DNA of 221 nt, taken from the sequence record M10495.1; one strand, written 5' to 3'. The notes below the pieces were generated by a model. It did not search any database, was not told the DNA's origin, and saw only the letters and a program-made list of their open reading frames with translations. Positions 1-221 of this stretch are shown piece after piece (position 1 is the stretch's first letter; the number at the start of each line of letters is the position of its first letter). The DNA is from a phage. The position numbers were made by a program, and so were the translations under genes.

Positions 1-5
1 GGGGA

Positions 6-21
6 CCCCCCGGAAGGGGGG
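6..21 (+). other. 5'-terminal stem-loop; the 5' GGGGA (1-5) is left unpaired
   Basis: CCCCCC (6-11) is the exact reverse complement of GGGGGG (16-21): 6 bp stem, GGAA loop (12-15, GNRA-type). Checked by hand. Confidence 0.7.
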
Positions 22-41
22 ACGAGGTGCGGGCACCTCGT
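22..41 (+). other. Perfect 8-bp hairpin
   Basis: ACGAGGTG (22-29) pairs with CACCTCGT (34-41); loop CGGG (30-33). Checked by hand. Confidence 0.7.
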
Positions 42-53
42 ACGGGAGTTCGA

Positions 54-69
54 CCGTGACGAGTCACGG
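54..69 (+). other. 6-bp hairpin with CGAG loop; candidate exterior loop that tolerates insertions
   Basis: CCGTGA (54-59) pairs with TCACGG (64-69); loop CGAG (60-63). A weaker alternative hairpin, 42-45 with 54-57 (ACGG/CCGT), competes for the same bases. Confidence 0.65.
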
Positions 70-72
70 GCT

Positions 73-86
73 AGCGCTTTCGCGCT
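73..86 (+). other. 5-bp hairpin with TTTC loop
   Basis: AGCGC (73-77) pairs with GCGCT (82-86); loop TTTC (78-81). Confidence 0.6.
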
Positions 87-92
87 CTCCCA

Positions 93-119
93 GGTGACGC
101 CTCGAGAAGAGGCGCGACC
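93..119 (+). other. Central hairpin with internal loop
   Basis: Core stem CGCCTC (98-103) pairs with GAGGCG (109-114), 6 bp, loop GAGAA (104-108). Outer GGT (93-95) pairs with ACC (117-119) across a small internal loop (96-97 and 115-116). Confidence 0.6.
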
Positions 120-120
120 T

Positions 121-143
121 TCGTGCGTTTCGGCGACGCACGA
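121..143 (+). other. 7-bp hairpin with 9-nt loop
   Basis: TCGTGCG (121-127) pairs with CGCACGA (137-143); loop TTTCGGCGA (128-136). Confidence 0.6.
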
Positions 144-148
144 GAACC

Positions 149-171
149 GCCACGCTGCTTCGCAGCGTGGC
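149..171 (+). other. Longest perfect hairpin (9-10 bp)
   Basis: GCCACGCTG (149-157) pairs with CAGCGTGGC (163-171); loop CTTCG (158-162), or TTC if C158-G162 also pairs. Confidence 0.7.
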
Positions 172-173
172 CC

Positions 174-197
174 CTTCGCGCAGCCCGCTGCGCGAGG
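174..197 (+). other. 7-10 bp hairpin near the 3' end
   Basis: Core CGCGCAG (177-183) pairs with CTGCGCG (188-194); loop CCCG (184-187). Extendable by T176-A195, T175-G196 (G-U wobble in RNA) and C174-G197. Confidence 0.65.
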
Positions 198-200
198 TGA

Positions 201-214
201 CCCCCGAAGGGGGG
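201..214 (+). other. 3'-proximal stem-loop, mirror of the 5' hairpin
   Basis: CCCCC (201-205) pairs with GGGGG (210-214); loop GAAG (206-209). Confidence 0.65.
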
Positions 215-221
215 TTCCCCA
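215..221 (+). promoter_or_regulatory. Single-stranded 3' tail TTCCCCA: C-cluster initiation site for the replicase plus a terminal A
   Basis: Seen: bases 215-221 lie outside every local hairpin and end in CCCCA. Established knowledge: Qbeta replicase starts synthesis opposite a 3' C-cluster and adds a non-templated A. The tail could instead pair with 1-5 in a terminal panhandle (see findings). Confidence 0.6.

Follow-up and report, generated by a model that had tools for sequence, protein, structure and literature searches.

Record M10495.1, a 221-Nucleotide Phage Sequence, Is Best Explained as the Full-Length Plus Strand of the Qβ Replicase Template MDV-1

Introduction

Does the short phage record M10495.1 hold a slice of a larger gene, or is it a complete molecule with its own two ends? 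The record consists of a single stretch of 221 nt, which was analysed here at its full length and is referred to below as the window; the strand as deposited is called the plus strand. An earlier reading, made from the letters alone (the sequence-only reading), had taken the window for a whole RNA template of Qβ replicase resembling MDV-1, which encodes nothing and is amplified by the phage polymerase, and had considered it a well-known molecule and no novelty.

MDV-1 (midivariant-1) is a classic, one of the earliest replicating RNAs whose complete sequence was determined; its plus strand reportedly goes back to the work of Mills, Kramer and Spiegelman in 1973. Since then it has been a workhorse of Darwinian evolution in vitro and the basis of amplification probes that use Qβ replicase, and it is now the scaffold of self-encoding RNA replicons and of their parasites. 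In the present work, the ends, the coding potential, the relatives and the predicted folding of the window were analysed computationally, and the alternative explanations of the record were weighed against each other.

Results

Termini, length and start codons

The window was found to contain 71% G+C, to begin with GGGG and to end with CCCCA. The probability of both termini occurring together by chance was about 4e-5, as calculated from the base composition of the window. The reverse complement of positions 1–220 starts with GGGG and ends with CCCC as well, and an added A gives it the same end design as that of the plus strand. Hence, 5' GG(G) and 3' CC(C)A, the ends expected of a Qβ replicase template, were present on both complementary strands.

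In Qβ RNA, 5'-GG and CCA-3' are found on each strand (PMC4200798). Synthesis by Qβ replicase starts de novo with GTP placed opposite the penultimate C; the A at the end stacks on the first base pair but is left uncopied, and each round ends with a new untemplated A (PMC4200798). The ends of the window fit this published initiation scheme exactly, and they do so on both strands. On the plus strand, the CCCC at positions 217–220 would be the initiation site, where copying begins opposite the penultimate C with GTP, and the A at position 221 would be the untemplated addition, which is left uncopied and stabilizes the initiation complex (PMC4200798). The GGGG at positions 1–4 would be the last stretch to be copied and would template the 3'-terminal CCCC of the complement (PMC4200798). 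The length of midivariant RNA was given as 221 nt elsewhere (PMC5336357). The claims that both natural ends were present and that the window had the length of MDV-1 were therefore borne out.

The statement that no start codon existed on either strand was correct in part. Neither ATG nor TTG occurred on either strand of the window, but the plus strand has six GTG codons and the minus strand four, and mechanical open reading frames of 25 and 29 amino acids were listed. ATG was missing from both strands because the AT (ApU) dinucleotide was wholly absent (0 observed versus 4.6 expected, P = 0.004 by mononucleotide shuffles). The absence of ATG itself was no more than mildly unusual for this composition (P about 0.05, mononucleotide shuffles).

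Unique recognition sites for XhoI (CTCGAG, 101–106), NheI (GCTAGC, 70–75) and BstEII (GGTGACC, 196–202) were also noted in the window. The XhoI site is situated in a hairpin loop, where the Qβ minus strand, Qβ(-), has CTCGTG. The site may be natural or introduced; in the one paper found to name XhoI together with MDV, it is a cloning site in Mills's plasmid pDM1002.

Coding potential and searches for another source

One stop-free frame per strand spans the window (1–219 on the plus strand and 3–221 on the minus strand), which is to be expected fairly often at 71% G+C. No homologue of either translated frame was found among 5.8 billion proteins, and neither belonged to a Pfam family. The G+C fraction at the three codon positions varied from 0.63 to 0.77 in every frame, with no codon-position bias. 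A coding origin was rejected because both translated stop-free frames lacked a Pfam family and a homologue. The RNA encodes nothing, as the sequence-only reading had asserted; along with the results above, the lack of ATG speaks for this.

With permissive E-values, Rfam gave nothing beyond hairpins matching by chance, the best of them scoring 18.6 bits against a gathering threshold of 45, and no tRNA or tmRNA was detected by ARAGORN. BLAST against plasmids and 5,426 E. coli genomes gave no meaningful match. Exact-pattern scans with five patterns of 24–34 nt in viral, genome and metagenome contigs produced no match save one 24-nt hairpin, which is positions 149–172 of the window and was found at 1394–1417 of the soil-type metagenome contig Ga0187784_10064742. 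In that contig the hairpin has AAAA before it and TTTATTTAT after it, in the manner of an intrinsic terminator. The match was rejected as a coincidence because flanking similarity was absent, the hairpin running into a T-run and the flanks being unrelated to those in the window. Given the lack of protein homologues and of matches in the E. coli, plasmid and contig collections, the view that the window is not a slice of a larger gene was upheld.

Comparison with published MDV-1 sequences

The window was compared with 12 oligonucleotides published for the MDV-1 plasmids pUC-MDV-LR, pUC-mdv-alpha and pUC-N96 by the Yomo and Ichihashi laboratories (PMC4652763, PMC5362092, PMC6082869). All 12 were placed on the window, at positions 1–27, 32–82 and 187–203. 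Over these 95 of the 221 nt (the other 126 nt being 28–31, 83–186 and 204–221), not a single substitution was recorded, and the only differences were two single-base changes in run length. An alignment with published MDV-1 had been named as a check by the sequence-only reading, and its outcome over the 95 nt was in favour of that reading.

The plasmid sequences of the pUC-N96 and pUC-MDV lineage have a 5' hairpin of GGGGAC7GGAAG7AC, whereas that of the window is GGGGAC6GGAAG6AC. Since C6/G6 stands in place of the C7/G7 of current plasmids, the window is one published version of MDV-1 and differs from some of the MDV-1 sequences now used. The difference at positions 6–21 may reflect either an under-counting of the runs in the older sequence or a real variation among MDV-1 stocks.

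The MDV-1 insertion site, called "63/64" in the papers, was identified as the junction GTGACG/AGTCAC at positions 61/62 of the window, in the loop 60–63 of the hairpin 54–69. Of the primers flanking this site, one ends at position 61 and the other begins at position 62. The offset of two bases arises because two runs are each one base shorter in the window. The position of the site also means that the strand in the window is the one numbered as MDV-1(+). The laboratory "222-nt" RNA would then correspond to the window with two run bases added and the terminal A removed, as this A is absent from the SmaI run-off transcript. In the NCBI taxonomy, "midivariant sequence" (taxid 31896) is placed under "other sequences", which fits a record made of the MDV-1 molecule alone.

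Homology to the Qβ minus strand

Two blocks of the window were found to be homologous to Qβ(-). The internal block, at positions 79–126 of the plus strand, aligned with positions 81–128 of Qβ(-) and was identical at 41 of 48 positions in laboratory Qβ and at 38 of 48 in strain TW18. The 3'-terminal block, at positions 187–220, aligned with the 3' end of Qβ(-) with 30 of 34 identities in TW18, and 28 of 33 identities were counted for positions 187–219 in laboratory Qβ. Smith–Waterman comparison with the whole Qβ genome gave scores of 48 (187–220) and 46 (79–126), when the maximum of 100 shuffles was 29. Of the two, a phage BLAST search detected the 187–220 block only, which is the complement of nt 1–34 of Qβ RNA, Qβ(+); the internal block was found by the Smith–Waterman comparison. 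An internal and a 3'-terminal block homologous to Qβ(-), as expected of MDV-1, were hence both present. Outside of them, the similarity to the corresponding regions of Qβ(-) was not significant, with z values of 1.8 and 0.25 for positions 1–78 and 127–186, respectively.

These two blocks would be the homologies that Nishihara, Mills and Kramer reportedly described in 1983, in work said to have dealt with the role of the internal and 3' blocks in replicase binding.

Measured from the 5' end, the internal block starts almost equally far along in both molecules, at 79 in MDV-1(+) and 81 in Qβ(-), and the two distances become equal when C7/G7 is used for numbering. Despite this, no significant similarity to Qβ(-) was seen in the first 78 nt. 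A direct repeat of 19 nt with 74% identity was also observed, having AGGTGAC in common and one copy in each Qβ-homologous block (83–101 and 186–204). Tandem Repeats Finder reported no repeats in the window.

In the predicted folds, the internal block together with its upstream neighbour forms two adjacent hairpins in MDV-1 and Qβ(-) alike, and the same two-hairpin layout was found in the minus strands of M11 and FI. Ten of the 16 predicted pairs were kept through two-sided changes in at least one of the seven sequences compared, four of which were nearly identical; such compensatory changes would equally be expected if the complementary structure of the plus strand were conserved. Judged by its homology and its conserved two-hairpin module, the region 79–126 is presumed to be the internal site at which the replicase recognizes and binds the RNA.

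Predicted folding of the two strands

The minimum free energy was −143.5 kcal/mol for the plus strand and −138.9 kcal/mol for its reverse complement, when the shuffled sequences folded at about −104 and −103 kcal/mol, respectively. The corresponding z values were −8.1 and −7.8, and none of 200 shuffles folded as well. About 71% of the bases were paired. The strong intramolecular structure that is expected of a template was thus found in both strands.

Nine local hairpins were predicted in the plus strand. The 5' hairpin C6-GGAA-G6 occupies positions 6–21 and is followed by an 8-bp hairpin at 22–41, which was also seen as an inverted repeat. A branched domain at 44–91 is closed by the helix 44–48/87–91 and carries the hairpins 54–69, with the insertion site marked by the flanking primers, and 73–86. 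The hairpin at 92–120 contains an internal loop (92–95/117–120 and 98–103/109–114) and lies inside the internal Qβ-homologous block. Further along the chain are a 9-bp hairpin at 121–143 and a perfect 10-bp hairpin at 149–171, both of which are inverted repeats as well, a 10-bp hairpin at 174–197, and the 3' hairpin at 199–216.

The 5' and 3' hairpins have an alternative. In the lowest-energy fold of the full-length molecule, these regions enter a long-range helix formed by 1–11/209–219 and 16–20/201–205, and the structure with separate hairpins at 6–21 and 199–216 was about 12 kcal/mol less stable. The helix between 1–20 and 201–219 recalls the "functional circularity" of legitimate templates that was reportedly described by Ugarov and Chetverin in 2008. 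In the same predicted fold the 3' CCC is paired with the 5' GGG. Taken alone, such pairing would leave the initiation site inaccessible, unless the helix is opened by the enzyme or a metastable form with the two hairpins is used. The description of the window as "wall-to-wall local hairpins" therefore held for the nine hairpins and the z values of about −8, but it left out the long-range terminal helix of the predicted fold.

Folding of the growing chain was modeled by taking prefixes of increasing length. Each hairpin joined the lowest-energy structure once its second arm existed. All prefixes of up to 215 nt retained the 5' hairpin, and only with the last few bases did the long-range helix between the termini become favourable. 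The duplex of the plus and minus strands was calculated at −557 kcal/mol, versus −284 kcal/mol for the two folded strands together. Because the duplex is far more stable than the folded strands, the single-stranded state must be maintained kinetically.

Strong intramolecular structure is known to suppress the formation of dead-end duplexes, and MDV-1 is regarded as a legitimate template (PMC4652763, PMC6913131). The sequential appearance of hairpins in the growing chain agrees with this relation between structure and duplex formation (PMC4652763, PMC6913131).

Discussion

Identity of the window

Every feature of MDV-1 that was tested, and every sequence-level feature of a legitimate Qβ replicase template, was found in the window. 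Based on these results, the window (positions 1–221, plus strand) is almost certainly the full-length, non-coding plus strand of MDV-1 in DNA letters, complete to its two natural ends, an RNA that would be amplified autocatalytically by Qβ replicase; its length, its termini, the oligonucleotides and the fold z of −8.1 all point to this explanation as the best one. The earlier reading of the window as an MDV-1-like template of Qβ replicase was thereby supported by the fit of the 12 oligonucleotides over 95 nt, the insertion site, the two Qβ(-) blocks and the length of 221 nt. The identification is correct, and the molecule has long been known, so the opinion that no novelty was involved stands and no discovery is claimed.

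It was considered whether the record represents a cloned, engineered or edited MDV-1, derived from a cDNA or a vector backbone or from an early sequence with under-counted homopolymer runs, instead of the exact master sequence. The C6/G6 hairpin, set against the C7/G7 of the pUC-N96 and pUC-MDV lineage, would be explained in this way, as would the unique XhoI site at 101–106 in a hairpin loop exactly at the Qβ(-) CTCGTG, and the unique NheI and BstEII sites. However, restriction sites arise easily by chance at 71% G+C, and the window carries neither a polylinker nor a promoter, is not flanked by vector sequence and has nothing inserted at 61/62. Its 3' end is the natural CCCCA without a run-off restriction site, its 3' hairpin has the same C5/G6 runs as Qβ(-) of strain TW18, and 221 nt is the length quoted for the natural RNA (PMC5336357). 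An edited MDV-1 is thus unlikely, though it deserves some consideration. A still more doubtful proposal is that the window is a distinct replicating version of MDV-1 and not a transcription of the standard one. If so, the C6/G6 5' hairpin and A104 in the loop, where Qβ has T, might matter functionally, and the co-linearity of the module might mean that MDV-1(+) arose from Qβ(-) through divergence in place together with a single internal deletion, rather than through unrelated pieces being recombined.

The remaining explanations place the window outside MDV-1 altogether. Ends of the GG...CCA type and strong structure are common to all RNAs of this class, and they were the features used by the sequence-only reading, so a different Qβ replicase RNA, such as an RQ or 6S-type variant sharing only the end motifs with MDV-1, would show them too. 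Such a variant is highly improbable, as the MDV-1-specific oligonucleotides fit exactly over 95 nt, with the insertion-site hairpin included, and the window is 221 nt long, when the other named variants are much shorter, at about 77–135 nt. Equally remote is a Qβ genome made defective by internal deletion (a DI-type RNA). The homology of two blocks to Qβ(-), with the internal one nearly equally distant from the 5' end (79 versus 81), would suit such an origin, but resemblance to Qβ extends over about 82 of the 221 nt only, and the window retains neither a Qβ gene nor a binding site of the plus strand. A Qβ deletion genome was rejected, as the window is not wholly Qβ sequence joined by deletions, the regions 1–78 (z = 1.8) and 127–186 (z = 0.25) being dissimilar. 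The least credible origin, to which next to no weight was given, is a cellular or phage genome rich in G+C, of which the window would be a slice with GGGG and CCCCA at its ends by accident. The 71% G+C, the two stop-free frames and the 24-nt hairpin shared with a metagenome contig could be quoted in its favour; on the other hand, the frames have neither a homologue, nor a Pfam family, nor a codon-position G+C bias, and the E. coli genomes, the plasmids and the viral, genome and metagenome collections gave no match beyond that terminator-like hairpin with its dissimilar flanks. The joint probability of the termini, about 4e-5, argues against an accident as well.

Proposed replication scheme

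With the window taken as MDV-1(+), the following course of replication was proposed. Qβ replicase, composed of the β subunit, EF-Tu and EF-Ts, would take a free 3' end and begin with GTP at the penultimate C of CCCCA. The template would be recognized through the internal module 79–126 and the 3' block 187–220, a role suggested by their computed homology to Qβ(-). As the chain grows, product and template would each fold into a row of local hairpins, and the strands would be kept apart in this way despite the greater stability of the duplex. At the 5' GGGG of the template, the product would gain CCCC and one untemplated A. The complement matches the plus strand in end design and folds comparably, and both strands would be expected to act as templates, so that the number of copies would grow exponentially until the enzyme, the nucleotides or the annealing of strands became limiting. 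Exponential amplification, limited by duplex formation or by nucleotide supply, was described for RNAs of the MDV-1 type (PMC6847885).

The record accordingly represents a non-coding replicator of laboratory origin, classed among "other sequences", and it does not add a new element to any natural genome. Its ends, its row of hairpins, its two Qβ-derived blocks and its insertion loop display what a minimal template of a viral RNA polymerase needs.

Comparison with known systems

The window resembles MDV-1(+) in its length of 221 nt, its GGGG...CCCCA ends, all of the 95 nt compared, the position of the insertion-site hairpin and the homology to Qβ(-). The MDV-1 plasmids of today differ from it by having both 5' homopolymer runs one base longer (C7/G7 in place of C6/G6). 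The 222-nt MDV-1/S222 transcripts and the "parasite" RNAs of the translation-coupled replication system of Yomo and Ichihashi share the same backbone, and their primers match the window. The S222 and "parasite" RNAs are legitimate templates that are amplified by Qβ replicase. The 222-nt transcripts are distinguished from the window as T7 run-off products ending at a SmaI site, which lack the terminal A and carry C7/G7, whereas the host RNAs of the same system differ by a gene inserted at 63/64.

To our knowledge, RQ135, MNV-11, SV-11 and the micro- and nanovariants are unrelated to MDV-1 in sequence and are shorter. They are like the window in being non-coding and structured, in having GG...CCA ends and in using both strands as templates, as described in part in PMC6847885 and otherwise from general knowledge of these RNAs. 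Finally, Qβ(-) shares with the window the 3'-end hairpin with CCC(A), the 5'-proximal two-hairpin module (28 of 33 and 41 of 48 identities, respectively) and the same initiation chemistry; however, it is a 4.2-kb complement of a coding genome, and the Qβ-like part makes up only about 37% of the window.
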